64,000 nucleotides of DNA from positions 1,312,001 to 1,376,000 of the forward strand of contig CBDETK010000013.1 in assembly GCA_965242865.1 (NCBI GenBank), given 5' to 3'. The notes beneath the pieces were generated by a model, which was not told the origin of the DNA, did not search any database, and saw only the letters and a program-made list of their open reading frames with translations. The position numbers and the translations under genes are program-made. Positions 48,319 to 64,000 of this stretch are shown in pieces (positions within the stretch are counted from its first letter, which is position 1; the number at the start of each line of letters is the position of its first letter). Origin of the DNA: Candidatus Latescibacterota bacterium (lineage in GTDB: Bacteria; Latescibacterota; UBA2968; UBA8231).

Positions 48319-48627
48319 ATGGCTGACTTATTCCGTTCATTGATCTGGGTCCTCCCTCTATGGGCTGGTTTTACGGCCGGACCGGCCGCCGGATTGGTCA
48401 TATACCGATTGGGCGGCGCGGCCCTAGAGCCACCTTTAGAAGCGGATCGCGCAGGAGTGGAATTCATCCAGTTGGACTAGACGGTGCTCGACCCTTCCCT
48501 CGGCGGAAAAGCCATTGATTTGGATATAGACCCCGCCGCGATCCGGCCTCCCAAACTGTACCAAGTCGCCGTCGAAGCCAACCACCAAGCGATCGAGGCG
48601 ATAAAACCAATACAGGTCGCCTATTAA
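48319..48627 (+). pseudogene. Internally deleted paralogue of the 58745-60649 gene
   Basis: AAGLVIYRLGGAALEPP...VEFIQLD*TVLDPSLGGKAIDLDID...LYQVAVEANHQAIEAIKPIQVAY*; TAG at 48478-48480. Confidence 0.85.
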
Positions 48628-48636
48628 GGGGACCCT

Positions 48637-48861
48637 TCTAAGTACGCGACCCTTGCTTTGCGAACGCATTTTCTGCCGTTCCCACTGCGTCTGGGATCGA
48701 GGGCGTCCCGCCCTCGACGAGGCAGCAATCCTACATCATTCAAGCTGGATTCCCGCCCCGTGTCGGAGCACGGGGTGACGTTCTGTTGTGGGAATGACGC
48801 CCCTATGCAAAAAACAGGGCCGATGAACATACCATGCTTTCAAGTCATTTAGGACCGCTAT
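48637..48861 (-). repeat. Composite repeat: family 2 half plus family 1 copy C
   Basis: ctaagtacgcgac...gggatcgagggcgtcccgccctcg...ctggattcccgccccgtgtcggagcacgggg...gggaatgac...gtcatttaggaccgctat. Confidence 0.85.
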
Positions 48862-48880
48862 GTCCCGCGGATCCGGGCTC

Positions 48881-50914
48881 TTAAAACTCTTCAGGCGATG
48901 TCCCCTCCCGACGTAGCCGCTCGGCGGTTTCAAAGGCGGTCTGGGCCAATTCTCGTCGCCCGGTGTGCATATAGAGCATGCCTAGATTGTAGTGGGCAAC
49001 GGCCACATCGGGTTCGAGCTGCAGGGCTTGGCGCAACGCCTCTTCGGCGCGGGATAGCTCGCCGCGCCGCAGGTACAAGGCACCAAGGTTGCGGTAGGCC
49101 GCGGCAAATTCCGGAGCTATCTCTATGGTCTGTCGCAAGTGCCGGATCTGCTCGGCCTCGGCCCCTAGATGGTGGCAGGCATTAGCCAAGGCGTAGAACC
49201 CTTCGGCTCGTTGCTCCGCTTCTAGTGCTGTGGAGAACGCACCATAAGCCCGCAGATAGTCCCGCTGGTCTAGGTGGAGATACCCTAGGTAGTAATGACC
49301 CTCGTATTGAATGGCGGGACGCGGGTCGTTGGCGAGTGCCGTCAAGAGGAGGGACCGGGCTTCCGCGAAGCGCTGCTCCCCGCGGAGCAGATTGCCCAGA
49401 TTGAGCCGAGCCCGGGTGTGATCTGCGGCCAGAGCAAGGGCTTGGCGATACGCCGTCTCCGCTTCACGAGGCCGCCTCTGCGCCTCGTAAACCGCGCCCA
49501 GACTGCCATAGACATCTGCATCGTCAGGGACGACTTGAAGGGCTTGCAAATAGGCCGCCTCAGCGTCGGCGTATGCTTGGTTGCGTGTATGGGCCTGCCC
49601 ATAGAGCCAAGCCGAGCGCAGATGATCCACCTGTGCGGGGTCAATTCCGGTGTGTCCCAGTGCCAACGCCGCCCCCAGCACCAGCACCAAAGCCGCACTG
49701 CGCCTCCACTGGTGCCCCTTTAGACTGAGCACCCCTTGACGGATCGCTTCGGCGGCGAAAATCATCAGAAAAGGCACCGCGGGAAGTCGATAGCGGGCGC
49801 ATACCGTGAAGAGCAGGCCCGCGACCAAGTAGGATAGGCCAAAACCGTAGAGCAAGCCGTACTGACGCCAGCGGCGTCCGTTCCACGCTAGGCCCACTAA
49901 GGCTAGGGACGCGACCATGCCAAAACCGAAAACATTCAGGCGACTCAGGTGGGAATGGGTCTCGTAAAAGTGGATGTCAACGCTCACTGGAATTTCAAAG
50001 GCGTGCCAAAACAGTCTGAATTTGCGGTAGAGCAGGTAGAGATAGGAACGCGGTTGATCGACAATGAAGCCGAGGCCCTCAATCAGATAGAACCGGCCTC
50101 GGTCGGCTGGCGATGCGGCCATCCCGGCTTGGTAGGGCACTATTTCGAGGCGTTGCCAGTCCAGCCCTTGGCGGGCATACGGAGTGCCGTCGGCTGCTGG
50201 GTTGTTGCCCAGGTAAAAGCTCCAAGCCCCTTGGAAGGGGAGCGGCGTACCTTGGACGAGGCTGTTGTGGACCAAGAAGGGCGTCAGGATGGCACAAAGC
50301 CCCAAGCAGAAGGACACCATCAATCTGTACCGAGTCCGATGGTAGAGCCACCACAGGGCCACCGGCACCAGCAGCAGGGTATTGCTGCGCGTCGCCACTA
50401 GCAGGCCCAGTAGCACTCCGGCCCCGGCGGCCGCCCCAGAGCTAGACTGATCGGTGCAGCGCACCAGTTGGACGACCAAAAGCAGCTCGATAAAGATGGT
50501 CAGGGTGGTGGCCAGCAGTTCGCCATTGTAGAGGATAAAGGGCCAGTATCCAACGGCCATCAGGCCGGTTAGCAAGGGCGTCGGAGCGGGGAAAAAGCGC
50601 CGAGCAATAGCGTAGAGGAGGACGCAGGAGAAAGCCCCGAGGACAGCTTGGAATAAGCGCGTGGCCCCGAGGCCGGCCCCGCCCAGTTTGAGCAGGGCCA
50701 ACAGCACTGGATAGAGGGGACCGTGGACGTAAGTGCGCTGAGTCGCGGTCCACCAGTCGCCATTGAGCAGGGCCTGCGCCAAATAATAGTACTCCTCGGC
50801 GTCGAGGAGCAGGGTGTGAAAGTAGAGTGTATCGCGGATTTCTGCTAGGTACGCCAAGCGCAGAATCAGGGCCGAGAGGAACAGGGCGACGGCATGGCGC
50901 TTGTTTATGTACAT
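48881..50914 (-). CDS. GT-C (PMT/ArnT-like) membrane glycosyltransferase with C-terminal TPRs
   Basis: ILRL...LLDAEEY...GPLYP; FYLGNNPAADG; ARYRLP; multiple TPRs (AHYNLG). Confidence 0.8.
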   Translation of the reverse strand: MYINKRHAVALFLSALILRLAYLAEIRDTLYFHTLLLDAEEYYYLAQALLNGDWWTATQRTYVHGPLYPVLLALLKLGGAGLGATRLFQAVLGAFSCVLLYAIARRFFPAPTPLLTGLMAVGYWPFILYNGELLATTLTIFIELLLVVQLVRCTDQSSSGAAAGAGVLLGLLVATRSNTLLLVPVALWWLYHRTRYRLMVSFCLGLCAILTPFLVHNSLVQGTPLPFQGAWSFYLGNNPAADGTPYARQGLDWQRLEIVPYQAGMAASPADRGRFYLIEGLGFIVDQPRSYLYLLYRKFRLFWHAFEIPVSVDIHFYETHSHLSRLNVFGFGMVASLALVGLAWNGRRWRQYGLLYGFGLSYLVAGLLFTVCARYRLPAVPFLMIFAAEAIRQGVLSLKGHQWRRSAALVLVLGAALALGHTGIDPAQVDHLRSAWLYGQAHTRNQAYADAEAAYLQALQVVPDDADVYGSLGAVYEAQRRPREAETAYRQALALAADHTRARLNLGNLLRGEQRFAEARSLLLTALANDPRPAIQYEGHYYLGYLHLDQRDYLRAYGAFSTALEAEQRAEGFYALANACHHLGAEAEQIRHLRQTIEIAPEFAAAYRNLGALYLRRGELSRAEEALRQALQLEPDVAVAHYNLGMLYMHTGRRELAQTAFETAERLRREGTSPEEF

Positions 50915-51027
50915 GGGCAAGTGCCAGTCTTTCGACAACGGCAAAAAAGTTAGCTTTATTGGGGATTGATTTTACCTCTAAAACAATACCTTAATATGCG
51001 GCCCTAGCGGCGTTGGAGGAAAACGGT

Positions 51028-52773
51028 GTGAAAGACTTGAGAAGCAGTACCCGCCTTGTATCCACCGCGACGCGATGGGGGATCGGGGCGGCCCTGCCCC
51101 TGCTGGCGATGGGGGGGACTGGGTGTGCCCAGCAAGAGGAAGAAGTCGCCCAGCCGGAGGTCGCGCTCGTCGCCCCTCCCGATTCGACCGCCCAAGGGGA
51201 ACTGGAACTGGCCCGGGTGGGCGACCGCTCCATCACCGCTGGCCAACTGCGGACGTTCTACGGCAAAATCCCCCAGTACCTCCAAAGCGACCGGGAAGGG
51301 CTGGAGAAAGAGCGCGACCATTTGCAGACGCTCATCGATATGGAGTTGCTGCAAATGGAGGCCAAAGCGCGGGGGATCGATCGCCTGCCGGTCTTCATTA
51401 CTAAGATGGCCCAGTACCGGAAGGAAAGGCTCATTGGCCTCTACCAGACCCAAAAGATCAGGGTGCGCGTCTCGGGGCAGGAGGTCCGCGATTACTTTCA
51501 AGCGCGAGGGTTGGCGCGCAAAGTCCGCTTTGCCCAACTCATCGCCGCCAGCCAAGACAGCGCGTGGTCTGCCCGGCGCGCGATCGCGGCGGGGCGAGAC
51601 TTTGGTGAAGTGGCCGAGCAGTGGTCCATCCACGGGCCGACGCTGGAGCAACAGAGGGCCAGCGAGCGGTTTGTCGGCAAGCTCGATATGCCACCCTATC
51701 TGCGGCCGCCCCTCTTCGCACTTGCAACCGGGGAAGTGAGCCAGCCCATAGACATCGGGGGGCATTTCGCCCTTTTCAAAGCCTTGGAGTCCGTGGAAAC
51801 CGGGCTGGACGACGAGCAATTCCAAACGATCTACCGACAGCTCTTCATCGAGCGCAGCGTCGCGTCGCGGGCGGCCTTGGCCGACAGCCTCAAAGAAGCC
51901 TTCAAACTCGAACGGGACCAGCGGGGGTTGGACGCTTTTGTGGCAGCCATGCACAGGGGGGCCTCCTCCGACGATAAACAGGTGCGGGCCCTTGTTCTCT
52001 ACCGCTATGCAGGAGGAACCATCGCGGCCGGGGATGTACTCGATGCCGCCAGTCAACTCAAGTACAAAACGCTGGACTTGCGCCGCAAGGAGGCCGTCAC
52101 CGAGTACGCCGAAAGCACCTTGGTGCCCGATGCGCTCTTTGTCGAGGCCGCCCTGCGGGAGGGCTTAGACCGGAGCGGGGAAGTGACGCAATGGCTGGCG
52201 AGGAAGCGGAACCGGGAATTGGTCGTGCAGTTGCGCGTCTCTGTGTTGCAGGAGCGCGTCAGCATTTTTGAAGAGGATATCCGCCGGGAGTACGAAGAAA
52301 ATCCCGACCGCTACATGCAGCCCGACCAAATTGAGATCCAAGAAATCCTCGTCGCCACGGAAGCGGAGGCCGAGGACTTGCTCCAGCGCCTCCGGCAGGG
52401 AGCGTCCATGGGGGACTTGGCTCGCCAGCACTCCCAACGCTTGCCCGCCCTGCGGGACGAGGAGGGCCGCCGCCGGTTCACGGTTGCGGCCGCCGCAGTG
52501 TACGGACGCTTGGTCGCCGCGGCCCGAAAGGCCCCGGTAGGCGAGTTGATCGGGCCGCTACAGGTGCGCGAGGGGTACTCCGTTTTCAAGGTGTTGTCCC
52601 GCGAGCAGCAGCGGGCCTCCTTTGCACAAGCCAAAAAGCGGGTGCGGGCCACAGTCAATTGGCTCGAGAAACAGCAGGTGTTCGAGCAATTCTTGGCCGA
52701 ACTGCGGGCTAAGTACGCGGCGCAAGTCGAGGTCCGGGAGGACAATCTGCAACGCGCTCTCACCAGCGGCTGA
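51028..52773 (+). CDS. Parvulin-type peptidyl-prolyl isomerase lipoprotein (two rotamase modules)
   Basis: GTGC lipobox-like; ELARVGDRSIT; GRDFGEVAEQWS...GEVSQPI; IQEILVATEAEA...GDLARQHS...GYSVFKV. Confidence 0.82.
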   Translation: MKDLRSSTRLVSTATRWGIGAALPLLAMGGTGCAQQEEEVAQPEVALVAPPDSTAQGELELARVGDRSITAGQLRTFYGKIPQYLQSDREGLEKERDHLQTLIDMELLQMEAKARGIDRLPVFITKMAQYRKERLIGLYQTQKIRVRVSGQEVRDYFQARGLARKVRFAQLIAASQDSAWSARRAIAAGRDFGEVAEQWSIHGPTLEQQRASERFVGKLDMPPYLRPPLFALATGEVSQPIDIGGHFALFKALESVETGLDDEQFQTIYRQLFIERSVASRAALADSLKEAFKLERDQRGLDAFVAAMHRGASSDDKQVRALVLYRYAGGTIAAGDVLDAASQLKYKTLDLRRKEAVTEYAESTLVPDALFVEAALREGLDRSGEVTQWLARKRNRELVVQLRVSVLQERVSIFEEDIRREYEENPDRYMQPDQIEIQEILVATEAEAEDLLQRLRQGASMGDLARQHSQRLPALRDEEGRRRFTVAAAAVYGRLVAAARKAPVGELIGPLQVREGYSVFKVLSREQQRASFAQAKKRVRATVNWLEKQQVFEQFLAELRAKYAAQVEVREDNLQRALTSG

Positions 52774-52801
52774 GCAGTCCGATTGCGAGCGCAGATTCAA
52801 C

Positions 52802-54964
52802 GTGTCCCACAACGCAGAGCAGGCCCCCAAACGCAGCCTATTCCGCTGGGGTACGGGTGCTATCTTGGCCCTAGCACTGGCGTTGCGCTGGCCCGTGCCC
52901 GCCCCGGCTTGGACCCATTTCGACGAGCTCGCCTTCATCGTCCTGCCACTCGGTTTCTGGAGCGGCGATCTCAATCCCCACTATTTCAATTACCCCACTT
53001 TTCACTTCTACCTTAGTTCACTGCTGTACCTGCTCTACTACCTTTTGACGAGTGCTGAATCAGTGGACCAGTTCGTGGCCTATCGCTTGCTGGTAGATGG
53101 CCGCGACTTGCTGCCGTTAGTGCGCGGGGTCAACGCACTGATGGCCGTTGCCACAGTAGGGGCTGTCGCCTGTTTAGGCCGGCGTCTCTACGGCGTCAGC
53201 GAAGGACTCTTGGCCGCCCTAATTTTGGCGGTCGCGCCGCTAGCCGTGCGGTTTGCCCATCTGGCCACCACGGATACGCCGGCTGTTTTCTGGGCGGTAA
53301 TGGCCCTGTTGTGGGCCGTGCGCGCCCGGCAGGAGGGGTGCGTAGGGGATTTTCTGGCGGCGGGTATTTTTATGGGTTTGGCCGGGGCGACCAAGTACCC
53401 GGCGGTCCTAGTGGCGGTGCCAGTGGTCACGGCGATCTGGCTGGGTCGTCCTTGGCCGCGGCCGCGCAGCCTCTGGGTCGTCGGTGGGGCCGCGCTCAGT
53501 TTTGCCTTAGCCACGCCCTTTGTCTGGATCGACGCCGGGCAGTTTTGGGAGCATTTCGCCGATATGGGGCAGACCCATCTGCTGGCCGAGTCAAGGGCCG
53601 AGGAACGGGCTTGGCTCTACCACCTGCGCTATACCCTGCGCCACGGTCTGGGCGCGGTGGCGGCCGGGGCCGCAACTCTGTCCCTGCTCTGGGGCATTGG
53701 CCGGCGGCAATGGCAGGAACTCGTCTTGCTGGCCGGCATCGTCCCCTTGGCCGCAGTTCTCGCCCTTGCGGGGTCCACTTTCATGCGCTATGCCCTGCCC
53801 CTCGCGCCCCTGCTGGCCCTGCTCATCGGCCGCCTAGTCGGGATGGGGTGCAGGTATCCTTTGATGGGGGGCTTAGTCGTCCTGACTCTGGTAGCCGAGC
53901 CCCTGTACGCCTCGCTTCGCACTCGATCCCTACTCAGCGGCCCAGATACCCGCATTGAGGCGCGGGCTTGGCTCCAGACCCACCTTCCCCAGCACTATCG
54001 CCTGCTCCAATGGCCCGCGGAGTGCGGCCGGATCGAGGTGCTGACCCCTGAACGCGTACAGGTGCGGCAGACTCACTACCTCCACAGCTACGGCCGCGAA
54101 GCGTTGCTACAGGCGTACAGACTGCTGGCCCAGCGCGATGATCTGCCGCCCCTGTACCTAGAGATCAAGGCGGCGAGAGTAACGGCGACATCCCAAGACA
54201 GTGCGAGTGTCCCGGCCGTGGTCATCCACTATCAGCATCCAGTGTGCCGCGACGAGGAGATACCGCCCGACTTCCAAGCCCTTCTAGCGAAGAGCCAAGG
54301 ACAGAAAGTCTTTTCGCCAGGCCGGGTGGAAGCGGCTATTTTCGACCGAATGGACTGGTATTTTTTGCCGATTGCGGGATTTGACCGCGTAGAAAAGACC
54401 GGGCCTGTCGTCCGGCTGGGCACGCTCTCTGTGGGGGGCGACCCGGTGCGGATAGAGACCCGTTCTTACTTTGAGGCCCTGCACTCGGTTTTGCGCGGCC
54501 ACCAAGCTCGGGCCGAAAAGAATTGGATGGGGGCCTTGCAGGCGTACCACCGGGTTTTGGCAATCGTGCCCGTTCCCGAAGAGCTCGTCGGCCTCGCAAT
54601 GGGACGCTATCTCTACGCCCAGCTGGGGCGAACATATACTCAAGTAGGCCAATTGGACCAAGCCGTGCGCTTTTTGGAGCGAGCTATAGCTATCGATCTA
54701 AAGCCGGCGTACCGAGAAACGCACAACGAACTCGGGGTGGCGTACGCCTCCTTGGGAGATCTGGAAAAAGCCGTGGAAACGTGGGAAGAGCTAGTCGCGT
54801 TGCAGCCAGATTTTGCCCCGGCGTACTTTAATCTAGGCCGGGCTTTGTGGCGTTTGGAACGACGTCAGCAGGCCCGTGCGTACTGGCGGAAGGGGGTGGA
54901 GTTGATGCCCAATCATCCAGCGGCGGGCCGAATACAGCCGTTGGAGTTGGAGGAAGGAGACTGA
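52802..54964 (+). CDS. GT-C (ArnT/PMT-like) glycosyltransferase with C-terminal TPRs
   Basis: LRW...HFDE...DLNPHYFNYPTF; TKYP; FMRYALP; TPRs (AYFNLG). Confidence 0.8.
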   Translation: MSHNAEQAPKRSLFRWGTGAILALALALRWPVPAPAWTHFDELAFIVLPLGFWSGDLNPHYFNYPTFHFYLSSLLYLLYYLLTSAESVDQFVAYRLLVDGRDLLPLVRGVNALMAVATVGAVACLGRRLYGVSEGLLAALILAVAPLAVRFAHLATTDTPAVFWAVMALLWAVRARQEGCVGDFLAAGIFMGLAGATKYPAVLVAVPVVTAIWLGRPWPRPRSLWVVGGAALSFALATPFVWIDAGQFWEHFADMGQTHLLAESRAEERAWLYHLRYTLRHGLGAVAAGAATLSLLWGIGRRQWQELVLLAGIVPLAAVLALAGSTFMRYALPLAPLLALLIGRLVGMGCRYPLMGGLVVLTLVAEPLYASLRTRSLLSGPDTRIEARAWLQTHLPQHYRLLQWPAECGRIEVLTPERVQVRQTHYLHSYGREALLQAYRLLAQRDDLPPLYLEIKAARVTATSQDSASVPAVVIHYQHPVCRDEEIPPDFQALLAKSQGQKVFSPGRVEAAIFDRMDWYFLPIAGFDRVEKTGPVVRLGTLSVGGDPVRIETRSYFEALHSVLRGHQARAEKNWMGALQAYHRVLAIVPVPEELVGLAMGRYLYAQLGRTYTQVGQLDQAVRFLERAIAIDLKPAYRETHNELGVAYASLGDLEKAVETWEELVALQPDFAPAYFNLGRALWRLERRQQARAYWRKGVELMPNHPAAGRIQPLELEEGD

Positions 54965-55116
54965 GATTTTTCTTTGTACTTAGACTGTTTGCTCTTATAT
55001 TACCGCCGGCCAAGGGAAAGGAGGTTTTACCAGTAACTTGGCACTGTCCATGCAATGCAAGTGAGTAGATAGCTGAATCAGCTCCTCAATACAATACCTA
55101 ACAGGAGGTTAAGGTA

Positions 55117-56141: not shown

Positions 56142-58706
56142 ATGGCAGCGGACTCGATCGCCTATCGACTGGGCATCCCCAGCTTGGTGTGTACCCTGTT
56201 AGTCTTTCCCCTACAGGTCTGGTCGCAACAGGGCTATGCCATCCGCGGAAATCAAGTCCTGATTGACCGAGCAAGTCACTGGCAGGCGTGGAAAGGGGCT
56301 TCAAGCATTCTCGACATTTCCACCGCCGACAATACCGTGCGGCCCTCCTTTATGCGGAAAGAGGTCAACGCGGCTCAGGACGCACCGCAATTTTCCATTA
56401 CCGGCGCGGGGGGCGTGCTAGCGGGCTCCGGCCTCAATACGGCGCGCAACCTGATAGATGGCGACCTACAGACTCTGTGGAGCCCCGACCCGGAAAGCCC
56501 TCTACAAAATTGGTGGATAGAGGTACATCTTGGCCGCGTGGTGGTCGTCAAAAAAATCGTCGTGCATTTTGCCCAAGAAGACGAAGGGGATCCCTTTTTG
56601 CAGTTCAAGGTGCTGGGCTGGCGGCAACCCCCACCGCGCTCGGTCTTGGGCTACTATCTCGACGATCCCAAGACCAATGTCCCCAACTTCTGGGAAATCG
56701 GCCGAACCGACAAACCCAACAAGACTCAGCGCGTATTTGAATTTGAACCCCGACCGACCGAAGGATCGGATGCGCTCTTTAGGGGCGATCCGCTCGAGCG
56801 CATTCTAATTATTGCCATCAATAGTGATTCGACCAAGGCCGAGGAATTGACCGAACAGGAGTACGAAAATCTGCCGACCGAACAGCGCGGCGCTATCGAA
56901 TTTTATCGGCGAGAGCGGTCCGGCCGGGAAACCCTAATTTCACAAGGGGAATACGACAGCATCAATCCCGCACGCCAAGGCCCGATCCGCTACTACCGGC
57001 GGGAAATCCCCAAGATCGCCGAGGTCGAAGTCGTGACGGAGGGAGACAATATCAACATCGGCGTGGTAGAGCGGGGCGGCCAAGTGACGATCGAGACCAA
57101 CGGCGGCGTTAGCGACATTGGAGCTACAGTTACCGACGCCAACTACAGCACCGGGGTTAATGGGTCCATTTTCGGCTATCGCGACTACAATTACTTCGAG
57201 GATCTGGGCGCGCTATTCTGGGTTGACACCATGCACTTTCTCACCGACGGGGCCTCGCCGATCAACGAACTGTACGTCGATGTCTCCGACGGCACCCGGG
57301 CACCCGACGGCAGTATCAAATGGACTCGGGTGGGCCAAAGTACCTCTCGGGACGCTTTTGGCCACACCTCTTCCCGCGGCTTGCGATTTCGCGAAATCCA
57401 GATCGCGCCCACTCGGATCCGCTTTATCCGCTCGCCGTTCCAAAACCCACTGAGTTCGCTCAGCTACATCGCTTTTACAGAGGTGATGCTCTACGGGGAG
57501 GGCTTTGTGGCGGAGGTATCGCTGACTTCGGACCTAATTCAATTCAGCGAACCTAAGAACCTGATTTCCGTCGAGTGGGAGGCGGATACCCCGCCCGGCA
57601 CCCAAGTCCAGCTACAGACCCGCACGGGCAATGAGTTGATAGAAGAGAATATCCACCACGATTCCAATGGCAAGGTCGTCACTGCGAGTCGCTACAAAAA
57701 GCTGCCTAAGTCCAAAAAGGGCGATATCACCAGCACCTTCAAACCGGGCGACGACTGGAGCACGTGGAGTGTGCCGCATACTCAGTCTGGGGAAGCGATC
57801 AAATCCCCTAGTCCCAGGCAGTTTATGGAGCTTAGGCTCATCTTGCTCACAAACAGGTCGGACGCGGCCGCCACCCTCCGCTCCATTGCCGTCAACACCT
57901 CAGACCCCGTGGCCGACCGGCTGGTGGGAGAGATATGGCCCACCCGAATTGAGGCCGTGGGCACCCCGGAAGAATTCTCTTATTTCATCCGGCCCGATTT
58001 CACTGCGACCGAGCAGGGTTTCGACGAGATTAGCCTAGCAGGCACGGCGGGAACCGAGCTGGAGTTGCTCGAAGTGCGGACGGGAAGTACGGATGACTTC
58101 AAAAACGAACAGACCACCAACTACACACCAGCGGATCTGACTCTGCTCGATGCGCCAGCCGGTTCCCTCCGATTGCGTTTGAGCGAGAAAATTGGCTTGG
58201 GAACGGAGTTGGTTCAGGTCCGATTTCGCGCCACCATATTCGGCAATAGTGCCTCCTTTAGAGCTCTAGTACAGAACTCTGACGCCCCCAACTTCTGGCA
58301 GCGAGTTGACGAGGGCGATCCCACGGAGTTGGTCGGCAGCCAGACCGTCACCGTCCTAGCGCTCAGCGGCGACGAAATCATCAGAGATTTCAGCCTGGAG
58401 GCGCGGGTATTCACGCCCAATGGAGACGGCGTCAACGATGAGCTGCTAGTCAGCTTTGGCGTGGCGCGGGTGGGCACTGAGCGGCCGGTGACCCTGACCG
58501 TTTACGATCTGAGTGGGGTTGAGACCAGCCGGATAGAGGAACGCCGTCCAGACCCGCGCGGAAACTATATCTTTCGCTGGGATGGCAAGGATCACGGGGG
58601 CGCGCCGGTTCCTCCGGGGATATACTTGGCTCGGGTAAAAGTGGATGTGGATGCTGGCTCGGCCGATAACACTTTTGTGCAGCGGGTGGTCCATGTAGCA
58701 TACTGA
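56142..58706 (+). CDS. Large secreted protein, discoidin-like domain(s) plus FlgD/CHU_C-like CTD ending VAY (paralogue 1)
   Basis: Signal peptide; NLIDGDLQTLW...WWIEVHLG; FTPNGDGVND...VYDLSG...WDGKD...VPPGIY...VAY. Confidence 0.8.
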   Translation: MAADSIAYRLGIPSLVCTLLVFPLQVWSQQGYAIRGNQVLIDRASHWQAWKGASSILDISTADNTVRPSFMRKEVNAAQDAPQFSITGAGGVLAGSGLNTARNLIDGDLQTLWSPDPESPLQNWWIEVHLGRVVVVKKIVVHFAQEDEGDPFLQFKVLGWRQPPPRSVLGYYLDDPKTNVPNFWEIGRTDKPNKTQRVFEFEPRPTEGSDALFRGDPLERILIIAINSDSTKAEELTEQEYENLPTEQRGAIEFYRRERSGRETLISQGEYDSINPARQGPIRYYRREIPKIAEVEVVTEGDNINIGVVERGGQVTIETNGGVSDIGATVTDANYSTGVNGSIFGYRDYNYFEDLGALFWVDTMHFLTDGASPINELYVDVSDGTRAPDGSIKWTRVGQSTSRDAFGHTSSRGLRFREIQIAPTRIRFIRSPFQNPLSSLSYIAFTEVMLYGEGFVAEVSLTSDLIQFSEPKNLISVEWEADTPPGTQVQLQTRTGNELIEENIHHDSNGKVVTASRYKKLPKSKKGDITSTFKPGDDWSTWSVPHTQSGEAIKSPSPRQFMELRLILLTNRSDAAATLRSIAVNTSDPVADRLVGEIWPTRIEAVGTPEEFSYFIRPDFTATEQGFDEISLAGTAGTELELLEVRTGSTDDFKNEQTTNYTPADLTLLDAPAGSLRLRLSEKIGLGTELVQVRFRATIFGNSASFRALVQNSDAPNFWQRVDEGDPTELVGSQTVTVLALSGDEIIRDFSLEARVFTPNGDGVNDELLVSFGVARVGTERPVTLTVYDLSGVETSRIEERRPDPRGNYIFRWDGKDHGGAPVPPGIYLARVKVDVDAGSADNTFVQRVVHVAY

Positions 58707-58744
58707 GGGATGAGCAAGATCGGCGTCTAGGATTTGCGAGGGAA

Positions 58745-60649
58745 ATGTCAATGAGGACGGCTCCATTCTTTTGTGCCCTGATCTGGCTTTTCTGGTTTTG
58801 GGTCGGTTTTATGGCCAACGAGGCCGCTGGACTGGTCATTGTCCGCTTAGGCGGCCAAGCGCTGGATCCGCCTCCAGAAGTAAGCAGCGAAGAGGTGGAA
58901 TTTATCCAACTAAGCTGGCCTGATCTCGACCCTTCCCTAGGCGGCGAAACCATCGATCTAGCGATAGACGCCACGGCCATTCGGGCCCTAAAACGAGATC
59001 CTACCTTCAACATAGCCCCCGGAATTGAGGAAAGAGGGGGAAGCCATGTCAGAAAGCAAACCAACGGGCAGGTATGGGATGGGGACACCAGCACTTTCTG
59101 GTTGGCGGAACGGTATCTATGCACCGAATTCGAGGAAAGGAATTACTTCCTTAGCTGCACCGACGATTTCGGCACTCCGGGCACGGCAAATCTCAATCTA
59201 GGAGGCCCTCATCTCATCGACCGGATTCGGATAATATCCGGGCTGACCGATCCGAGCAGAATAGCACAGACCTTTCGCATTCACCTCAACGAAGAGCAGC
59301 CCCGCCAAGCTGCGTACCTGCACCCCCGTCCCTACGCGCCTTGGCTCGTTGAGGTGCGAGACAACCGCGAACAAATCATAGACGTACCCATCCCGCCGCA
59401 CGATAAAGCAAGTTTCGTTCAAGTCACTATCGGCGAGCACAACGAGGACTGGGAGGTAAACGAGATCGAAGTCTATGCCAAAGGCTTTGTCGAACAATCC
59501 ACGTACATTTCCAACATCCTCGATTGGGGGCGGCCCATGGCTTGGGGCGACCTGCGCTGGTCCGGCCACCAAGCCCCCAACGCCCGCATCTTCATCCAAT
59601 CCCGAACCGGACACGACGACGACCCGGACCTGTTCTGGCGCTTCACCGGCCGAGGCGACGAAAAAATACCCGTCAGCCGAGCCGACTACGCCAAGTTAGC
59701 GCGCGGCGAAAAAGCCGGGATCGGCTACGATCAAGCCCACTGGACATTCTGGTCGGCTCCTTACGCGTTTGCCGACAGCCTCGGCACCCCCGTTGCCTCG
59801 CAAGGCCCCCGACGCTATCTCCAACTCAAAGTAGATTTGCTCCCCCAAGCCGACGCTGGCGGTCACCTCCACTGGCTCGAAGTGCGGGCGTCTCCGCCGG
59901 TGGCGACGCAGTTGGTCGGCGAGGTCTGGCCGGTCGAAGCGCCGGTCGGACAGCCGCAGCCGTTTACTTACGTGCTGCGGCCCACCATTGGGGCGGAGGA
60001 TGGCGGCTTTGACCGGGTGGAGGTGGCCACGACTGCGCGGCTTTTGTCCGTAACGCACGTGCATATCGGCGATGCGCCGGTCGATTATGCCGTAGAAGCG
60101 ATGGCTCCTCACCGGGTGGTCTTGGGCATCCCGCGGCTGACGGCTGAAGATTCGGGCACGTTGGTGGAGGTGGGGTTCAACGCGGCAGTGTTGCGCTACG
60201 GCTCGACGTTTTCGGGTCGGGTGTGGGACAGCACCCAGCCATTGGAAGTGCCCCAGAGCGTCCAAGCGGGCGATGCCAGTCCGGCCTACGCGGCCAATCG
60301 GGTTTGGGTGGCCACCCCAGCGGTACAGCAGGCGGTGTTGCAGTTAGGGGTCGGTTCGGTGGTTTTGACGCCCAACGGGGATGGGGTCAACGACGCGGGT
60401 CGGCTAGGCTACGATTTATTGGAACTGCTGGCGCCGGCGTGGGTGGGGGTGTCGGTGTGGGATGTGTCGGGTCGTCGGGTGCGTGGGGTGTATGGGGGTT
60501 GGGATGGGGTGGGGGGGTATGAACGGGTGTGGGATGGTCGGGACGACGCGGGGCGATTGGTGCCGCCGGGTCTGTACCTGTACCGGGTCTCCGTCGAAGC
60601 CGACCACCAAACGATCGAGGCGATAAAACCAATACAGGTCGCCTACTAA
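58745..60649 (+). CDS. Secreted protein with FlgD/CHU_C-like CTD ending VAY (paralogue 2)
   Basis: Signal peptide; LTPNGDGVND...WDVSGRRVR...WDGRD...VPPGLY...VAY. Confidence 0.8.
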   Translation: MSMRTAPFFCALIWLFWFWVGFMANEAAGLVIVRLGGQALDPPPEVSSEEVEFIQLSWPDLDPSLGGETIDLAIDATAIRALKRDPTFNIAPGIEERGGSHVRKQTNGQVWDGDTSTFWLAERYLCTEFEERNYFLSCTDDFGTPGTANLNLGGPHLIDRIRIISGLTDPSRIAQTFRIHLNEEQPRQAAYLHPRPYAPWLVEVRDNREQIIDVPIPPHDKASFVQVTIGEHNEDWEVNEIEVYAKGFVEQSTYISNILDWGRPMAWGDLRWSGHQAPNARIFIQSRTGHDDDPDLFWRFTGRGDEKIPVSRADYAKLARGEKAGIGYDQAHWTFWSAPYAFADSLGTPVASQGPRRYLQLKVDLLPQADAGGHLHWLEVRASPPVATQLVGEVWPVEAPVGQPQPFTYVLRPTIGAEDGGFDRVEVATTARLLSVTHVHIGDAPVDYAVEAMAPHRVVLGIPRLTAEDSGTLVEVGFNAAVLRYGSTFSGRVWDSTQPLEVPQSVQAGDASPAYAANRVWVATPAVQQAVLQLGVGSVVLTPNGDGVNDAGRLGYDLLELLAPAWVGVSVWDVSGRRVRGVYGGWDGVGGYERVWDGRDDAGRLVPPGLYLYRVSVEADHQTIEAIKPIQVAY

Positions 60650-60689
60650 GGGGCGTTTTGTACAAATCCAATTGGAGGTTAGCTCGCCT

Positions 60690-62891
60690 GTGCAAGTGGA
60701 TTTTGGTTTGAATGTACGCTCCCTAATTATGGGGATTTTGCTCGCCGCCTACGGGGCTGTGGACACCGGGGAAACCAAGGAATTGATCATCCTTGGTGGA
60801 ACGGAAGGTCGGCCTTGGCAGGACGGTGGCGGTGGTATAGCTCCGGTGATCATCTTAGGTCCCCGAGAAGTAACAAACGAAAACGTACCGGGAGGGATTA
60901 TCGACTTTTCTGCGCGGGAGGGATGGATTTTTCCCGAAAAGGCCGACCAAACGGACAACATCGCCTTACAACTGCTAGACCGGGGCGGCTCTGTAACCGC
61001 GCCCACTGTGCTCGCCGATCTGGGAACAGATTTGTTGAAAATGATCGACAATGATGCCAATTCGGCCTTTGAACGAAAAAGTTCGCCCGGTCAGAATGTC
61101 CGCGCATTGGGCGTGGTCTTCCAGTTCGATTTGGGAGCGCGATTCGGCGTGAGTCGCATCCGCTTCTTCCCCAGAAACGCAGATCCAGACTTTCTCGCCC
61201 CTGACTTTCCCTTTCAGGACGATTATATGAGGGCTTATGAGATTTTTCTCAACGACGGTACGCGAGAAACACTAGCGGCCGGCTTGCCGGTATTTACCAG
61301 CGTTCTGCTCGTCCTACAGAACGACCAGCCGGTGGTGGATGTGCAGATAGAACCCCAGTACGTGCGCTACATCCAGCTAAAATCCCAGACCACAGTGGGC
61401 TTTGAAATAGGTGAGTTTCAAGTCTTCGGAGAAGGCTTCGTTCCCACGGCCGAGTATCATTCGGATGTATTTGATCTGGGAGAAAATCTGGCTCTTTGGG
61501 GGCAGCTACGTTGGGAGGAAGCCAGCCAAGGGGACCCCATCCGCTCCCAAGTGCCCATCAGTACGCGGAGCGGCTTTGACGATTCCCCAGTCGTGTTCAA
61601 TCGCCTGCGCAGCGACCTCGACGGCACCGAAGTGCCTTGGAAGATGGCCGAGGAGTTCGACGAAGGCAGCCAAGCGCGGGAAATAGTCAGCCAGCTCGAC
61701 TCGCCCGATCTCGATATAAGGCAGGCTCGGCTACTCTACAAAGACCTGCCCCTCAAGAGGAGAAACGAGATCTCGCTGACCCAAGCCGACTACAAAAAAC
61801 TGCGAGCGGGCAACAAGGGGTCCGTGCGCGACGACCTAGAAAACTGGAGTGCGTGGTCGCCGCCTTATGCGGCCGAGGGCATCACGAGCGCCGATAACGT
61901 GGCCGCTGGGATGGCAGGAGTGCCCATCATTTCGCCCGCGCCACGGCGCTACTTTCAGTTCAAGGTGGATTATTTGAGTGAAGACCTCTTTTCAGCCAAA
62001 GGCATTGGGTCGCTGTCCTTTGATTTTTCCAGCCCTGTACTGGCCGAAGAAATCGTCGGCGAGATCACCCCGCGCCAAGCGGCTCTGGGGCAAGCAACCG
62101 AGTTTTCCTTGGTGCTCGTTCCCAATATGCGGCCCGGCCTCGATCAGGGCTTCCGGTCCCTCGAAATCAGCACCCCTGTAACGGTGGACGCCGTGGAGCG
62201 GATTGGGATGTCGCTACCGGATGGCTCTCGCCGCGAACAACATTTCTCGGATTCGGACCTGCGCGACCTGCCGGTGGAACGCGGGGAGTTCCGCATTGAT
62301 TTGGTAGCGGAAGACCGCTTCCAGATCAGTTTTCCCAAAGTGGAAACCAGCCGCCTAGCAGCGGACCAAATGACCGTTCTAGACGTGGATTTCAAGTGCG
62401 TGGTGCTGCGGACGGGCACCGCCTTTTCCTCCTGGGCCTTGTCCGAGACCCCTAGCGAAGTGCCGCAACGAGTGGTGGGCGGCAATGTCGTGGCCCTGCT
62501 CCAAGCCGGGGCCAATGCTTCGCTCATCCGCGACCCGGGCAATCTAGTGGTGCAAGTGGCCAAGAAAGGGGCCTTGCTAATCAATATCAACGCGGTGCCG
62601 TCGGTCTTGACGCCCAACGGGGATCAAATCAACGACACCGCACAGATCCATTTTGATATAACCGATCTCATCAGCGGGGCCGATGTAGGGGTGCGGATAT
62701 ACGACTTGGCCGGCAGCATGGTGCGGGAAGTCTATCGGGGAATCGCCCAGAGCGGCCGCTTCGCCAAGGCTTGGAACGGCACCGATGGACGCGGCAAGAC
62801 CGTGCCGCCCGGCCTCTATATTTTCAAAATTGACTTGGACACCGATGGCGGCAAGGCCGAGGCGAGCGGTCTCCTAGGCGTGGCCTATTGA
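60690..62891 (+). CDS. Secreted protein with FlgD/CHU_C-like CTD ending VAY (paralogue 3); start uncertain
   Basis: LTPNGDQIND...IYDLAGSMVR...WNGTD...VPPGLY...VAY; GTG start after GGAGG. Confidence 0.8.
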   Translation: MQVDFGLNVRSLIMGILLAAYGAVDTGETKELIILGGTEGRPWQDGGGGIAPVIILGPREVTNENVPGGIIDFSAREGWIFPEKADQTDNIALQLLDRGGSVTAPTVLADLGTDLLKMIDNDANSAFERKSSPGQNVRALGVVFQFDLGARFGVSRIRFFPRNADPDFLAPDFPFQDDYMRAYEIFLNDGTRETLAAGLPVFTSVLLVLQNDQPVVDVQIEPQYVRYIQLKSQTTVGFEIGEFQVFGEGFVPTAEYHSDVFDLGENLALWGQLRWEEASQGDPIRSQVPISTRSGFDDSPVVFNRLRSDLDGTEVPWKMAEEFDEGSQAREIVSQLDSPDLDIRQARLLYKDLPLKRRNEISLTQADYKKLRAGNKGSVRDDLENWSAWSPPYAAEGITSADNVAAGMAGVPIISPAPRRYFQFKVDYLSEDLFSAKGIGSLSFDFSSPVLAEEIVGEITPRQAALGQATEFSLVLVPNMRPGLDQGFRSLEISTPVTVDAVERIGMSLPDGSRREQHFSDSDLRDLPVERGEFRIDLVAEDRFQISFPKVETSRLAADQMTVLDVDFKCVVLRTGTAFSSWALSETPSEVPQRVVGGNVVALLQAGANASLIRDPGNLVVQVAKKGALLININAVPSVLTPNGDQINDTAQIHFDITDLISGADVGVRIYDLAGSMVREVYRGIAQSGRFAKAWNGTDGRGKTVPPGLYIFKIDLDTDGGKAEASGLLGVAY

Positions 62892-62934
62892 TGGATTGCT
62901 TCTGAGCAGCGCTTGCTAACGAGAGGGATACCTG

Positions 62935-64000
62935 ATGGCAGATGCAGGGTACAGAGGATGGATAGCACTGTGGATAGCCGCGGCCTTGAGCACGCCGGCT
63001 TTTTCCCAAGAGTACAACAACCGCCTCGGGCAACAGAGAGGGGGCAAGGTCACCTTTGAACCCTTGGGCCCAGGGGTGTTTTTCGATGCCCTCGATCCCA
63101 CCGTAAAGCGATGGTACGTCCCCCAAGAACTCTACCGAGATTACCGATTCCAGACTTGGGAATACTCCAACTATGCCCGGGAGCCTTATGAGCGCTACGT
63201 CAACACCACTCGGGAAGGCGAGTATTTCTACGACACGTTCGGCAATTTCGTCAACCGGGGATGGCTCATCTACGACTGGCGTCAGGAAGCCTTGACCCCG
63301 TTGGGCAGCTCCATCTATCAGGATTCGAGGTATCTGGGTTGGTTCAACCAAGTGTTGATCGCCACTGATTCAAAAGGCGGTGCTCTCTACTCCATAACCA
63401 CCGGGGATCAGATTCGCACCACGCTCACTCCCATGACCTTTTCCAAGCCCGCCTTCAACGGCATCCAGCTAGACTTTGCAACGGATAAATACGCCGGCAC
63501 GGTCCTCCTATCGAGGATCAGCAGCCCGGTCCGGGCGTCGGTCTCCAGCGCCGACACCCGGACCAACGCCACCAATATGATCGGCGGCCGGGCCCTAGCC
63601 CAAGTGGGCGATTTCGTCACCCTCGGCGCGACTTGGGTCAATGCCCACAACACCCGGACCACGCTAGGTTCGTTCGACAGCAACCCCACCAAGGGCACCT
63701 TGGGCGACGGGCAGGCCAGAGTGCCAATCAACGCCATCGCCCTCGTGCTCAGCGATGATTCTCCCGCAGACGGCGAGGGCGGAACCGCGCTTTTTTCTCA
63801 CGATTTAGTCGTGGTGCGCGAAGATTTTCAAAACGGAATCCGCGAAACGCTCGGCCTCGCCGACCTGACCAACGACCCAACGCGCTGGCCAGTCATAGAG
63901 GGCGGCTTTCGCGAAGAAGGCTTCTTGGCGGCCAACGGCCTTCAGCGGATCATCCTCAACTACGACTTTAACGATCCGGCCTATATCGGCCCCGACCCGA
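62935..64000 (+). CDS. Large exported protein, N-terminal part (possible outer-membrane protein); runs off the window end
   Basis: Manual translation: MADAGYRGWIALWIAAALSTPAFS-QEYNNRLG...DALDPTVKRWYVPQELY...YDTFGNFVNRGWLIYDW...LTPMTFSKPAFNGIQLD; no stop noticed up to the edge. Confidence 0.75.
   Translation, partial: MADAGYRGWIALWIAAALSTPAFSQEYNNRLGQQRGGKVTFEPLGPGVFFDALDPTVKRWYVPQELYRDYRFQTWEYSNYAREPYERYVNTTREGEYFYDTFGNFVNRGWLIYDWRQEALTPLGSSIYQDSRYLGWFNQVLIATDSKGGALYSITTGDQIRTTLTPMTFSKPAFNGIQLDFATDKYAGTVLLSRISSPVRASVSSADTRTNATNMIGGRALAQVGDFVTLGATWVNAHNTRTTLGSFDSNPTKGTLGDGQARVPINAIALVLSDDSPADGEGGTALFSHDLVVVREDFQNGIRETLGLADLTNDPTRWPVIEGGFREEGFLAANGLQRIILNYDFNDPAYIGPDP

Follow-up and report, generated by a model that had tools for sequence, protein, structure and literature searches.

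A many-times duplicated gene cassette of a Latescibacterota bacterium that may encode a surface capture-and-uptake complex

We analysed a window of 64,000 nucleotides from the genome of a Candidatus Latescibacterota bacterium (G000; 93.6% complete). The window contains one of 23 similar cassettes in this genome, whose products may form a surface complex that captures a ligand and takes it up. Such a complex would be analogous to SusCD, and an ExbB/ExbD motor, encoded separately, would power it; we put the probability of this at about 40%. We found no description of such a system in the literature that we searched. The cassette itself is a many-times duplicated satellite of an operon that contains the motor. 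All positions are numbered within the window (Table 1).

Results

Gene content of the window

Our check of the ORF list found every gene that the earlier note had named, including the WGRIK-tailed protein (WGK), the two-module parvulin (PPIase), and the two GT-C genes with TPRs that it placed before three tandem secreted proteins (the VAY proteins). Both GT-C genes are real, but the one at 48881-50944 is divergent: it lies on the minus strand and points away from the cassette, while the other genes of the finding are on the plus strand. The note began its locus at 48319, and what lies there is a broken VAY gene of subtype C with an internal deletion. The 5' part of this remnant is 69% identical to the gene at 58745 over 186 nt, and its 3' part is 92% identical over 76 nt. 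In L015, a close relative, an intact VAY gene occupies this position, and its start also matches the 5' part of the remnant (77% over 230 nt). As listed, the second GT-C gene shares 152 nt with the PPIase gene; its true start is probably further downstream. The BIG ORF extends beyond the end of the window, where it is followed by a paralogue of 924 amino acids. As for the DUF6785 family, 9 of its 29 paralogues are within 5 kb of a cassette (3.6 expected; p 0.011), which is a modest enrichment.

Table 1. Features of the window, with positions, strand, and basis or remarks
Feature	Positions	Strand	Basis or remarks
DUF6785/DUF6784 polytopic membrane protein	44763-46751	-	Pfam; outside the finding, loosely associated family
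Broken remnant of VAY subtype C	48319-48627	+	N-terminal part fused to last ~24 codons; 1 internal stop
Predicted GT-C (PMT_2) membrane glycosyltransferase with C-terminal TPRs, 687 aa	48881-50944	-	Pfam; accessory family
Two-module parvulin PPIase, 586 aa as listed	51013-52773	+	Rotamase_2 x2 (Pfam)
Second GT-C + TPR protein	52622-54964	+	PMT_2, 57.1 bits
WGK, secreted CBM9/DOMON-like protein, 310 aa, TSVExxSWGxIK tail	55117-56049	+	Family profile
VAY subtype A, 854 aa: F5/8 type C (CBM32-like) domain, conserved core, type-B-like C-terminal domain	56142-58706	+	Pfam; subtype clustering and tree
VAY subtype C, 634 aa	58745-60649	+	Pfam; subtype clustering and tree
VAY subtype B, 739 aa	60672-62891	+	CBM32-like ~92-254, beta-rich core, Ig-like C-terminal domain ~634-739 (AlphaFold2)
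BIG, 5' part; predicted outer-membrane beta-barrel, 928 aa	62935-64000	+	Full gene G000:C13:1374935-1377721

The Tyr-tailed VAY proteins

The earlier note described ordered motifs that are shared by the three VAY proteins, and this holds: all seven occur once in each protein and in the order given, and all three proteins end in VAY-stop. Their pairwise identity is 24-28%, and each has an N-terminal hydrophobic segment (11-residue hydropathy 2.2-2.4, which is a crude test for a Sec signal). Across the genome, it is the final tyrosine rather than the full ending that is conserved. The family, defined without its C-terminal domain, has 102 members, of which 97 end in Tyr, and 58 of those 97 end in VAY. 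Tyr ends 161 of the 3412 ORFs of at least 300 amino acids in the genome, those 97 included, and chance is excluded as an explanation for the ending of the VAY family.

TPNxD is found in 92 of the 97 VAY tails and in none of 83 other tails from this genome, while PNPFN-type motifs are found in 71 of the 83 other tails and in one VAY tail. Judged by these motifs, the VAY tail is a type-B-like C-terminal domain (CTD) of the T9SS, as had been proposed. CHU_C scores 27.1, 24.3, and 36.2 bits for the three window proteins (cut-off 27), with similar scores for FlgD_ig, and TIGR04131 finds only the 739-residue protein (24.3 bits against a cut-off of 35). The best structural match of the AlphaFold2 model of this subtype B protein (pLDDT 92.2, pTM 0.85) is CBM32 4a42 (Z 15.4, rmsd 2.0, 123 aligned), and residues 472-739 match PorU 6za2 (Z 12.2, rmsd 2.6, 101 aligned). 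The VAY proteins are predicted to bear a CBM32-like domain, a fold that our search also returned for non-lectins (IFT25 and DOC domains).

WGK, PPIase, and GT-C partners

Nearly all WGK paralogues (28 of 29) have the TSVExxSWGxIK tail. CBM9_1 (PF06452) matches 7 of the 23 aligned members, the window protein not among them, and the family profile matches xylanase A chain 1i82 (E 3.6e-5), which suggests that WGK is CBM9-like and has a fold of a sugar-binding type. The two-module PPIase is present in 21 of the 23 cassettes, 24 of its 31 paralogues have a lipobox-like Cys, and it is likely to be a lipoprotein foldase similar to SurA or PrsA.

Both GT-C proteins have TPRs and exceed the PMT_2 cut-off of 26.1 bits (28.2 for 48881-50944 and 57.1 for 52622-54964). 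The former has 11 paralogues in its family, 8 of them within 5 kb of a cassette (1.3 expected). No close paralogue of the latter was found in the genome; its orthologue, at 81-88% identity, lies upstream of WGK in all four orthologous loci tested. Most cassettes lack a GT-C gene, and at this locus L015 lacks the whole GT-C/PPIase/WGK/VAY-A block, both GT-C genes included. The earlier note made these enzymes core parts; they are instead accessories to a minority of cassettes, and we predict that they are glycosyltransferases.

BIG, a predicted giant barrel

The model of the 928-residue BIG protein (pLDDT 77.7, pTM 0.73) predicts a large outer-membrane barrel with about 24 strands and without a named family, and not a soluble protein. 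Fold searches return large outer-membrane barrels: MtrB 6r2q (Z 12.2, rmsd 8.1, 415 aligned), PgaA-type 4y25 (Z 11.3), PelB 9h80 (Z 10.4), SlpA 7zgx (Z 10.1, rmsd 7.1, 425 aligned, TM 0.18), the FimD usher (Z 9.4, rmsd 7.0, 336 aligned), and LptD. With TM-scores of 0.15-0.26 and identities of 7-11%, these model-based matches indicate barrel architecture only. The model also suggests an inserted beta domain, a conserved acidic loop, and an N-terminal segment of about 80 residues that could be a plug; for this candidate plug, mean column conservation is 0.63 (residues 26-104) and pLDDT is below 50 (residues 16-72).

In profile searches, PF00593 has 21 matches in the genome, all of them outside the BIG genes, and BIG is not among the genome's PorV_fam matches either. 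The 32 distant BIG members have no match to the PF00593 barrel or the PF07715 plug at E<=0.1, and no NCBIfam model matched two full-length paralogues. We rejected two identifications. By sequence, BIG is not a TonB-dependent transporter or SusC, as it lacks PF00593 and PF07715. Neither is it a PorP/SprF/PorV shuttle (PF11751, TIGR03519, NF033709), as these have ~300 amino acids and 14 strands.

Expansion of the cassette

The locus is not unique. The genome encodes 97 Tyr-tailed VAY proteins, 37 BIG paralogues, 29 WGK proteins, and 31 two-module PPIases, mostly within the 23 cassettes, and these four families account for 6.7% of the genome. A typical cassette has one VAY protein of each subtype (A, B, and C), with A+D+D as the alternative. 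Trees of the VAY subtypes are congruent with that of BIG over 13 cassettes (Mantel r 0.91 for A, 0.85 for B, and 0.91 for C), as are those of WGK (0.63; 11 cassettes) and PPIase (0.65; 12 cassettes), with the caveats that genes were assigned to cassettes after the trees were seen and that duplication of whole cassettes would suffice for congruence.

Near the cassettes, CRTAC1/ASPIC-UnbV propellers are enriched (19 of 39 versus 4.9 expected), while catabolic genes are at or below expectation: 2 of 21 sulfatases (2.6 expected), 2 of 27 PhyH, 1 of 14 GFO oxidoreductases, and 3 of 29 enolase-like genes. Among 183 neighbouring ORFs, we found no glycoside hydrolase or lyase families at E<=1e-8 and no synthase, OPX, or Wzx/Wzy families. 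Given that these neighbours include no such hydrolases or lyases and that sulfatases are not enriched, we rejected the idea that these are polysaccharide utilisation loci.

The motor operon

A compact operon encodes, in order, a VAY protein, a small PorV/PorP-like barrel, BIG, a TPR protein, ExbB, ExbD, a TonB-like arm with DUF4159, and a lipoprotein. Neither the motor nor the small barrel was in the earlier note. This order is found in G000, G008, G011, and G031, and in G107 without the small barrel; the operon thus extends to other families, and Kryptonium-like contigs have it as well. The motor genes match the ExbB/TolQ and ExbD/TolR profiles, and the small barrels match PorV_fam below the cut-off (E 6e-10 to 2e-21). 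Because the operon combines such a small barrel with a motor, the small barrel is likelier than BIG to be the T9SS shuttle, and BIG is likely to be coupled to the motor.

Synteny and the terminal Tyr are conserved across relatives, and BIG is predicted to be a barrel, so that none of the three outcomes that the earlier note named as refuting it was seen. We read by eye the ORF lists of 13 metagenome loci, for which GT-C was outside the profile set that was run. In 11 of the 13, a VAY gene is followed directly by a PorV/P-like gene and BIG, and the other two begin at BIG. A TPR gene follows BIG in 11 of the 13 and an ExbB-like gene is present in 9; L169 and L172 have VAY, shuttle, and BIG genes without an adjoining motor. 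All 11 of the VAY proteins end in Tyr. We saw no GT-C gene in these 13 loci, and no PPIase was labelled in them. The dedicated, self-contained locus for export, folding, and glycosylation that had been proposed is not supported; the cassette is instead a duplicated satellite of a motor operon, and that operon is without GT-C in these loci.

The DUF4159 arms begin with a hydrophobic anchor, and 6 of 8 have an SxxxH motif, which the operon's own arm (C13:4743480) lacks. In G000, a BIG gene lies within 5 kb of just 2 of the 8 arms. Five arms are in or beside arrays of secreted propellers, 4-5 of them far from any BIG. In G008, the arm gene adjoins BIG in 5 of the 7 BIG loci that we read, so arm and barrel duplicate together, as TonB and its receptor can. 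BIG has at least 15 near-full-length copies in G008 and dozens in G098 and in G107. Of 168 genomes, 107 have BIG and 101 have VAY (E<=1e-30). Both are missing from the same 56 genomes, which belong to three families, and SprA is present in all 13 of these that were tested.

Secretion genes

Part of the T9SS core that the earlier note had listed was found: SprA (481.9 bits; cut-off 200), PorU (624 bits; cut-off 420) adjoining porV, and 7 PorV_fam matches over the cut-off. GldL, GldM, and GldN had no match in the genome, but the same profiles are silent in all control genomes, so their absence is not implied; PF11751 (PorP/SprF) likewise had no match here or in the controls. In the window, there is no PorP/SprF-like gene directly downstream of the VAY genes. 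A PorV/P-like gene, below the cut-off, does directly follow VAY in the G000 operon, in G008, G011, and G031, and in the 11 metagenome loci with VAY. Type B cargo may have a cognate or a shared shuttle, according to two reports (PMC12618676, PMC9143113).

Discussion

How might the complex work? VAY proteins would cross the inner membrane by Sec, be kept folding-competent by the cassette's PPIase, and pass through SprA, after which a shared PorV/PorP-like shuttle would read the invariant TPNxD...Tyr tail. We suggest a shared shuttle by analogy with orphan type B cargo in Flavobacterium, which has one common shuttle. A single subunit of each of the subtypes A, B, and C (or a set of A+D+D), together with WGK, would then cap the barrel of the same cassette and bind the ligand, which is probably a glycan or glycoconjugate, and each paralogous cassette may have its own specificity. 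The weakest step is the last, in which the bound ligand would be imported as the ExbB/ExbD motor pulls on BIG, with the DUF4159 arm as a TonB-like link and the TPR protein as a scaffold. The complex would act like a SusCD "utilisome" that is made from different parts.

In favour of uptake, we count the conservation of the operon, the expansion of the barrels, the sugar-binding-type folds of the partners (CBM32 and CBM9), the congruent trees, the joint duplication of arm and barrel in G008, the absence of BIG and VAY from the same 56 genomes, the modest enrichment of DUF6785 membrane proteins, and the published cases of type B cargo with a cognate or shared shuttle. A large expansion of barrels is typical of receptor families. 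Against uptake, we count the lack of catabolic enrichment and of hydrolases, the presence of about 20 ordinary TonB-dependent receptors, the distance of most arms from BIG in G000, the missing SxxxH motif in the operon's arm, the low pLDDT of the candidate plug, the occurrence of CBM32-like folds in non-lectins, and the two metagenome loci without an adjoining motor; the congruent trees, too, could follow from cassette duplication. The enrichment of CRTAC1/ASPIC-UnbV and GT-C neighbours fits the building of a surface better than it fits feeding. A close rival, although we think it rather unlikely, is a separate type-B branch of the T9SS for surface display: the small barrel would shuttle VAY adhesins or lectins from SprA, BIG would be their final anchor, and the ExbB/ExbD-TPR-arm motor would replace GldLM for hand-over, release, or movement. 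The type-B-like tail, the PorV/P-like gene downstream of it, the enriched propeller and GT-C neighbours, the lack of catabolic enrichment, and the unmatched GldL, GldM, GldN, and PF11751 profiles are as expected from this, but the Gld profiles are silent in the controls too. Published work reports that type B cargo stays attached to PorP-like barrels (PMC9143113) and describes a TPR-tolQ-tolR-tolR-transducer class of unknown function (PMC12204202). On the other hand, an anchor does not obviously need 24 strands. Also, in G008, which has at least 15 BIG genes, VAY adjoins BIG in just one of the 7 loci read, and at E<=1e-30 the genome gave no match to VAY; G098 has dozens of BIG genes versus 2 VAY matches, so under surface display most barrels there would be without cargo of their own.

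It is quite improbable that BIG is instead an usher, to which the PPIase would hand A, B, and C so that a strand with the terminal Tyr is recognised and a short fibre or cap is built without SprA. The single subunit of each subtype per cassette, the near-constant PPIase, the FimD match, and the invariant last residue would suit such a system, but FimD matches no better than unrelated barrels do, the tail resembles T9SS CTDs (CHU_C and PorU), the ancestral operon has a PorV/P-like gene between VAY and BIG, and the metagenome loci have no labelled PPIase. The earlier note allowed for either glycan capture or an S-layer-like coat, and the coat is the weaker of these; we consider it very unlikely. 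In it, BIG would be a structural barrel like SlpA within a glycosylated coat, and the locus would be dedicated to export, folding, and glycosylation, with GT-C enzymes among its core parts. The share of the genome that is devoted to the four families, the enrichment of one GT-C family, the rank of SlpA among the top fold matches, and weak matches of 9 of the 32 distant BIG members to PF21620 (SlpA_C; E<=0.1, best E 8e-7) speak for a coat. The scarcity of GT-C genes, the low TM-score of the SlpA match, and a motor operon that a coat does not require speak against it, and dozens of paralogues that are 25-50% identical would be unusual in a lattice. The least probable reading is that BIG and the giant TPR protein form a porin like PgaA, BcsC, or PelB for export of a glycopolymer. 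The pairing of barrel and TPRs and the PgaA-type and PelB matches recall such porins, and the nearest named Atlas cluster to BIG is DUF6029 (0.89; a lead only), which one paper tentatively ties to polysaccharide secretion (PMC9603273). However, such fold scores are usual among barrels, the 183 scanned neighbours include no synthase, OPX, or Wzx/Wzy family, and this reading would leave unexplained why there are dozens of paralogues and why their partners are lectin-like.

Among known systems, T9SS type B (SprB-SprF; PG1035-PorP-PorE; orphan cargo on Fjoh_1677) resembles this one in its TPNxD-type tail beside a separate PNPFN-type class, in the presence of SprA, PorU, and PorV, and in the PorV/P-like gene downstream of cargo in the ancestral operon. 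It differs in that the last residue of the VAY tail is an invariant Tyr, that the score of this tail is below the TIGR04131 cut-off, that 97 cargo genes face few candidate shuttles, that the cargo comes in fixed A/B/C sets with a barrel of ~900 amino acids, and that there is linkage to ExbB/ExbD, with GldL, GldM, and GldN unmatched (here and in controls). SusC/SusD and other TonB-dependent transporters share the large barrel in dozens of paralogues, partners at the surface whose folds are of carbohydrate-binding types, and a tie to ExbB/ExbD and a TonB-like arm, which here is one of gene linkage. But the TonB-receptor families of Pfam do not match BIG, its predicted strands number about 24 instead of 22, its partners are secreted and tail-tagged instead of lipoproteins, the arm ends in DUF4159 instead of TonB_C, and there are no hydrolases nearby. 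The vWA-headed, motor-driven force transducers beside TPR-tolQ-tolR-tolR genes, as presented in the main text of Williams-Jones et al. 2025 (PMC12204202), also combine TPR, TolQ/ExbB, and one or two TolR/ExbD with a membrane-anchored arm that has a non-TonB head. Here the head is DUF4159, which that main text does not mention, and the same operon includes T9SS-type cargo and a barrel that is a candidate target in the outer membrane. MtrB, SlpA, LptD, and FimD are like BIG in fold-search rank, not in TM-score or identity. Lastly, TMTC/PMT-like enzymes share PMT_2 and C-terminal TPRs with both window GT-C proteins, which differ in being accessories with a predicted glycosyltransferase role.

If uptake is correct, then BIG may represent a second class of outer-membrane importers that are driven by the PMF, although we hold this broader idea more tentatively than the uptake reading itself. 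Its members would have a barrel of ~24 strands that is unrelated in sequence to TonB-dependent receptors, would be gated by a DUF4159 arm, and would be capped by lectin-like T9SS cargo that arrives via a dedicated Tyr-tail shuttle. Such a class would be old in the FCB group (as in the Kryptonium-like genomes), and it would have multiplied dozens-fold in Latescibacterota, where it would correspond to SusCD.

The locus and its surroundings

Every gene named in the earlier note was found among the open reading frames of the window. The three tandem secreted proteins (854, 634 and 739 amino acids) do all end in VAY followed by a stop, and all three carry the seven motifs described for them, in that order, at pairwise identities of 24-28%. 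We call this family the VAY proteins and divide it into subtypes A, B, C and D; in the window the order is A, C, B. Upstream of the trio lie a 310-amino-acid protein with a WGRIK tail, a GT-C+TPR gene, a two-module parvulin (PPIase) and a second GT-C+TPR gene, which is on the minus strand. Downstream, the 928-amino-acid protein that begins at 62935, a member of the family that we call BIG, is followed by a 924-amino-acid paralogue outside the window.

The first 309 bases of the region described in the note are a broken remnant of a gene like the one at 58745. These two related copies bracket the GT-C, PPIase, GT-C, WGRIK protein and VAY-A block. In a related locus (L015, 5809-7696), an intact VAY gene with a remnant-like 5' end begins at the remnant's position and the 10-kb block is absent, as recombination between the two flanking VAY copies would give. 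Near the remnant is a repeat of about 60 nucleotides with about 33 further genome-wide BLAST matches (78-100% identity), possibly a REP- or MITE-like element. The probable lipoprotein gene upstream is syntenic in L015. The genome contains 30 copies of the DUF6785/DUF6784 membrane proteins, and what a literature search listed for these domains dealt with DUF6029 alone. Each SNF2-type helicase gene of the window adjoins a large gene without a Pfam match (692 and 823 amino acids), and similar helicases are found beside other cassettes too; these regions are possibly defence islands.

Coordinates of features in the window and elsewhere on the same contig (G000:C13)
Feature	Location	Remarks
SNF2-type helicase genes, each with an adjoining large gene	window 19023-24492, 35583-41225	helicases 1101 and 1051 aa
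DUF6785/DUF6784 membrane proteins	window 44763-46751; G000:C13:1380505-1382469, 1384804-1386807	three around the cassette
Probable lipoprotein	window 46820-48217	CxxCH motif; weak copper monooxygenase C-terminal match, E 0.006
Remnant of VAY gene	window 48319-48627	
Repeat of ~60 nt	window ~48638-48700	
VAY trio	window 56142-62891	
Arrays of ~720-aa proteins	G000:C13:367162-410433, 488964-505267, 3156151-3205137	
WGxIK-type tails on other secreted proteins (example)	G000:C13:723232-739668	
Motor operon without BIG	G000:C13:4626394-4634935	
Compact operon	G000:C13:4725205-4741852	DUF4159 gene divergent

Cassettes in the genome

The source genome (6.0 Mb, 93.6% complete) encodes 97 VAY-class proteins, 37 BIG proteins, 29 secreted proteins of the WGRIK protein's family (WGK, with WGxIK tails) and 31 PPIases of the cassette type, and the four families make up 6.7% of the genome. 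They cluster into 44 groups, and 23 of these are cassettes, in which BIG is joined by two or more further core genes. The cassettes contain 36 BIG and 76 VAY genes, and most also have a PPIase (21 of 23) and a WGK gene (19 of 23). The closest relatives of the window's BIG protein, at 90-95% identity, are in records that are labelled mostly as Candidatus Latescibacterota and sometimes as Gemmatimonadetes.

If the VAY family is defined by its core, it has 102 members, of which 97 end in Tyr and 58 in VAY. TPNxD is present in 92 of the 97 VAY tails. A second class of tails, on 83 proteins from the same genome, has a PNPFN-type motif in 71 and TPNxD in none. [quoted passage not shown] The type A and type B classes are described in PMC12618676. 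Tails of the WGxIK type also occur on many secreted proteins that are unrelated to the WGK family; 82 reading frames in the genome match the pattern, some by chance, and the impression is of a further, third sorting signal, one for which NCBIfam has no model.

Subtypes A, B, C and D have 36, 21, 20 and 20 members, and a cassette usually contains A+B+C or A+D+D. The BIG tree and those of subtypes A, B and C (with the VAY tree built from the last 420 residues) agree on which cassettes are sisters. Across 13 cassettes, with the D-type cassettes excluded and genes assigned to cassettes by adjacency after the trees had been seen, Mantel correlations with BIG were 0.91, 0.85 and 0.91 for A, B and C, 0.63 for WGK over 11 cassettes and 0.65 for the PPIase over 12. 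Because duplication of whole cassettes would by itself yield such a signal, the congruent trees argue for a stable module and not for contact.

Twelve families were tested, without correction, for lying no more than 5 kb from one of the 23 cassettes. This held for 19 of 39 CRTAC1/ASPIC-UnbV propellers against 4.9 expected, 10 of 13 lipoproteins of the operon type against 1.5, 8 of 11 genes from one GT-C family against 1.3, and 9 of 29 DUF6785 genes against 3.6 (p 0.011). Sulfatases, PhyH, GFO and enolase-like genes were not enriched at this distance, and a Pfam scan of 183 neighbouring reading frames from 40 of 53 regions found no glycoside hydrolase or lyase. It had been proposed that GT-C enzymes are part of the locus; these counts imply that they are real partners but optional ones. 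The CRTAC1-like propellers, with FG-GAP and ASPIC/UnbV domains, lie in cassette flanks (for example in L099, L108 and L125), often with stand-alone or fused TPRs. They are the most enriched neighbours, and no reading discussed here explains them.

Predicted structures

The model of BIG (pLDDT 77.7, pTM 0.73) is predicted to have 24 barrel strands over residues 105-925, by count of DSSP elements; residues 242-427 or so form a beta insert, and 505-629 an acidic loop. This loop has 31 D/E in 125 residues and is the best-conserved region of BIG. Counting back from a periplasmic C-terminus, we infer that both inserts face outside and residues 26-104 inside. Fold searches returned large outer-membrane barrels at low TM-scores, led by MtrB (Z 12.2, rmsd 8.1, 415 aligned) and then PgaA-type proteins, SlpA, FimD and LptD; for this model, these are generic barrels only. 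There was a weak SlpA_C match in 9 of 32 distant BIG members, and a BIG profile had a single match among PDB sequences, at E 1. The idea that BIG is a miniature SprA was dropped, as profile comparison gave 0.8% probability and no homology. Likewise, BIG and VAY showed no homology (1.7%).

In the VAY-B model (pLDDT 92.2) one domain is CBM32-like (Z 15.4, rmsd 2.0, 123 aligned), and the C-terminal part matches PorU (Z 12.2, rmsd 2.6, 101 aligned). An Atlas search with the VAY core returned unnamed clusters only. The WGK proteins are CBM9-like, and 7 of 23 match PF06452; the window's member is not one of the seven. A complex prediction for BIG 37-928 with the VAY-B tail (634-739) scored 0.01 against a mark of 0.32, with controls that did not fold, and we weigh it neither way.

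Secretion genes, motor operons and range

The genome has SprA, PorU and seven PorV-family genes above cut-off. GldL, GldM, GldN and PF11751 had no match in the genome, but the controls were silent as well. According to PMC11285876, further FCB phyla may have a T9SS; Latescibacterota is unlisted in the passage that says so.

Across 168 genomes of the phylum, BIG is present in 107 and the VAY profile in 101 (E<=1e-30). Neither occurs in any of the 56 genomes that make up three of the families, and SprA is present in all 13 of these that were tested; as kin are not independent, the joint absence may reflect one loss or one gain. The order WGK-A-C-B-BIG is kept in 11 of 12 orthologous loci with upstream DNA, and L015 is without WGK and A.

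In distant families there is a compact operon: VAY, a PorV/PorP-like barrel of 300-400 amino acids, one to three BIG genes, a TPR protein of about 1100 amino acids, ExbB, ExbD in one or two copies, a DUF4159 protein with a membrane anchor (a TonB-like arm) and lipoproteins. It is present in the source genome and in three others (G008, G011, G031), and G107 has a version without the small barrel. Some members of a distant cluster of BIG proteins bear the name Candidatus Kryptonium thompsonii, which lies outside Latescibacterota. Among 13 metagenome loci of this cluster, 11 have VAY, small barrel and BIG in a row and the other two begin at BIG; TPR is present in 11 and ExbB in 9, all 11 VAY proteins end in Tyr, and no WGK or PPIase gene is labelled.

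In three genomes (G008, G098 and G107) BIG is far more multiplied than VAY, which implies that the barrel is the constant element. In G008, BIG adjoins WGK and DUF4159-arm genes. We started from the reading that BIG is a one-to-one analogue of PorP, and we lowered it given the separate PorV/P-like gene and the genomes with many BIG and few VAY. The small barrel is the better candidate for the shuttle, and the window's cassette is a satellite that would depend on a shuttle and a motor encoded at other sites of the genome.

A second motor operon contains WGK, a lipoprotein, a PorV/P-like barrel, TPR, ExbB, ExbD and a DUF4159 arm, but BIG is missing from it. There are also arrays of ~720-amino-acid proteins with type-A-like tails (KKTTKLP or RKMxKIE ends) and interspersed DUF4159 arms; one of these arrays ends in a VAY-BIG-TPR-lipoprotein unit.

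What the system might do

Our preferred reading, to which we give a probability of roughly 0.4, is an energised capture-and-uptake complex. VAY subunits would be exported by the T9SS through a shared shuttle and would assemble on their own cassette's barrel, and the motor would then drive import. We favour uptake because the motor is in the conserved operon, because arm and barrel are co-duplicated in G008, because the family has expanded as receptors do, and because the folds are of sugar-binding kinds. What chiefly speaks against it is that there are no catabolic neighbours and that most DUF4159 arms of the source genome are distant from BIG. The closest rival is surface display by a motor-assisted type-B branch, which we consider somewhat unlikely. 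A usher-like channel seems improbable to us: FimD is one of the fold matches, but so are other generic barrels. We doubt even more that this is a glycosylated S-layer, with SlpA-like matches on one side and optional GT-C enzymes on the other, and export of a polymer, which a PgaA-type match might bring to mind, is the least credible of all.

The front end would work like type B cargo and its shuttle, and the back end possibly like SusCD. BIG nevertheless belongs to neither the PorP family nor the TonB-dependent receptors, and none of the PF00593 and PorV_fam matches in the genome falls on a BIG gene. In its motor part the system is similar to the transducers with a vWA head in PMC12204202, the main text of which mentions neither DUF4159 nor Latescibacterota. 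For Latescibacteria, PMC4454575 reports porins and import that depends on TonB, and its accessible part has nothing like the present system. Our literature searches (T9SS, Latescibacterota, DUF4159, ASPIC/UnbV and Kryptonium/ExbB/PorV), mostly among open-access papers, found no description of it, only a Pfam paper on DUF4159, and none on the T9SS in Latescibacterota or Latescibacter.

The system ties a T9SS in which no GldLMN motor is detectable to a motor of the ExbB/ExbD type, and BIG is a candidate for the target, in the outer membrane, of the non-TonB force transducers noted recently. With the compact single operon of the Kryptonium-like genomes, expression and structural work could start from few and well-defined proteins. 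The four families are unnamed or barely annotated, and with BIG in 107 of 168 genomes the system ranks as a major feature of the envelope in a group that is widespread and uncultured. If display is correct, this would be a new branch of the T9SS; if import is, energised uptake would gain a new route, and the system would supply dozens of binding proteins.
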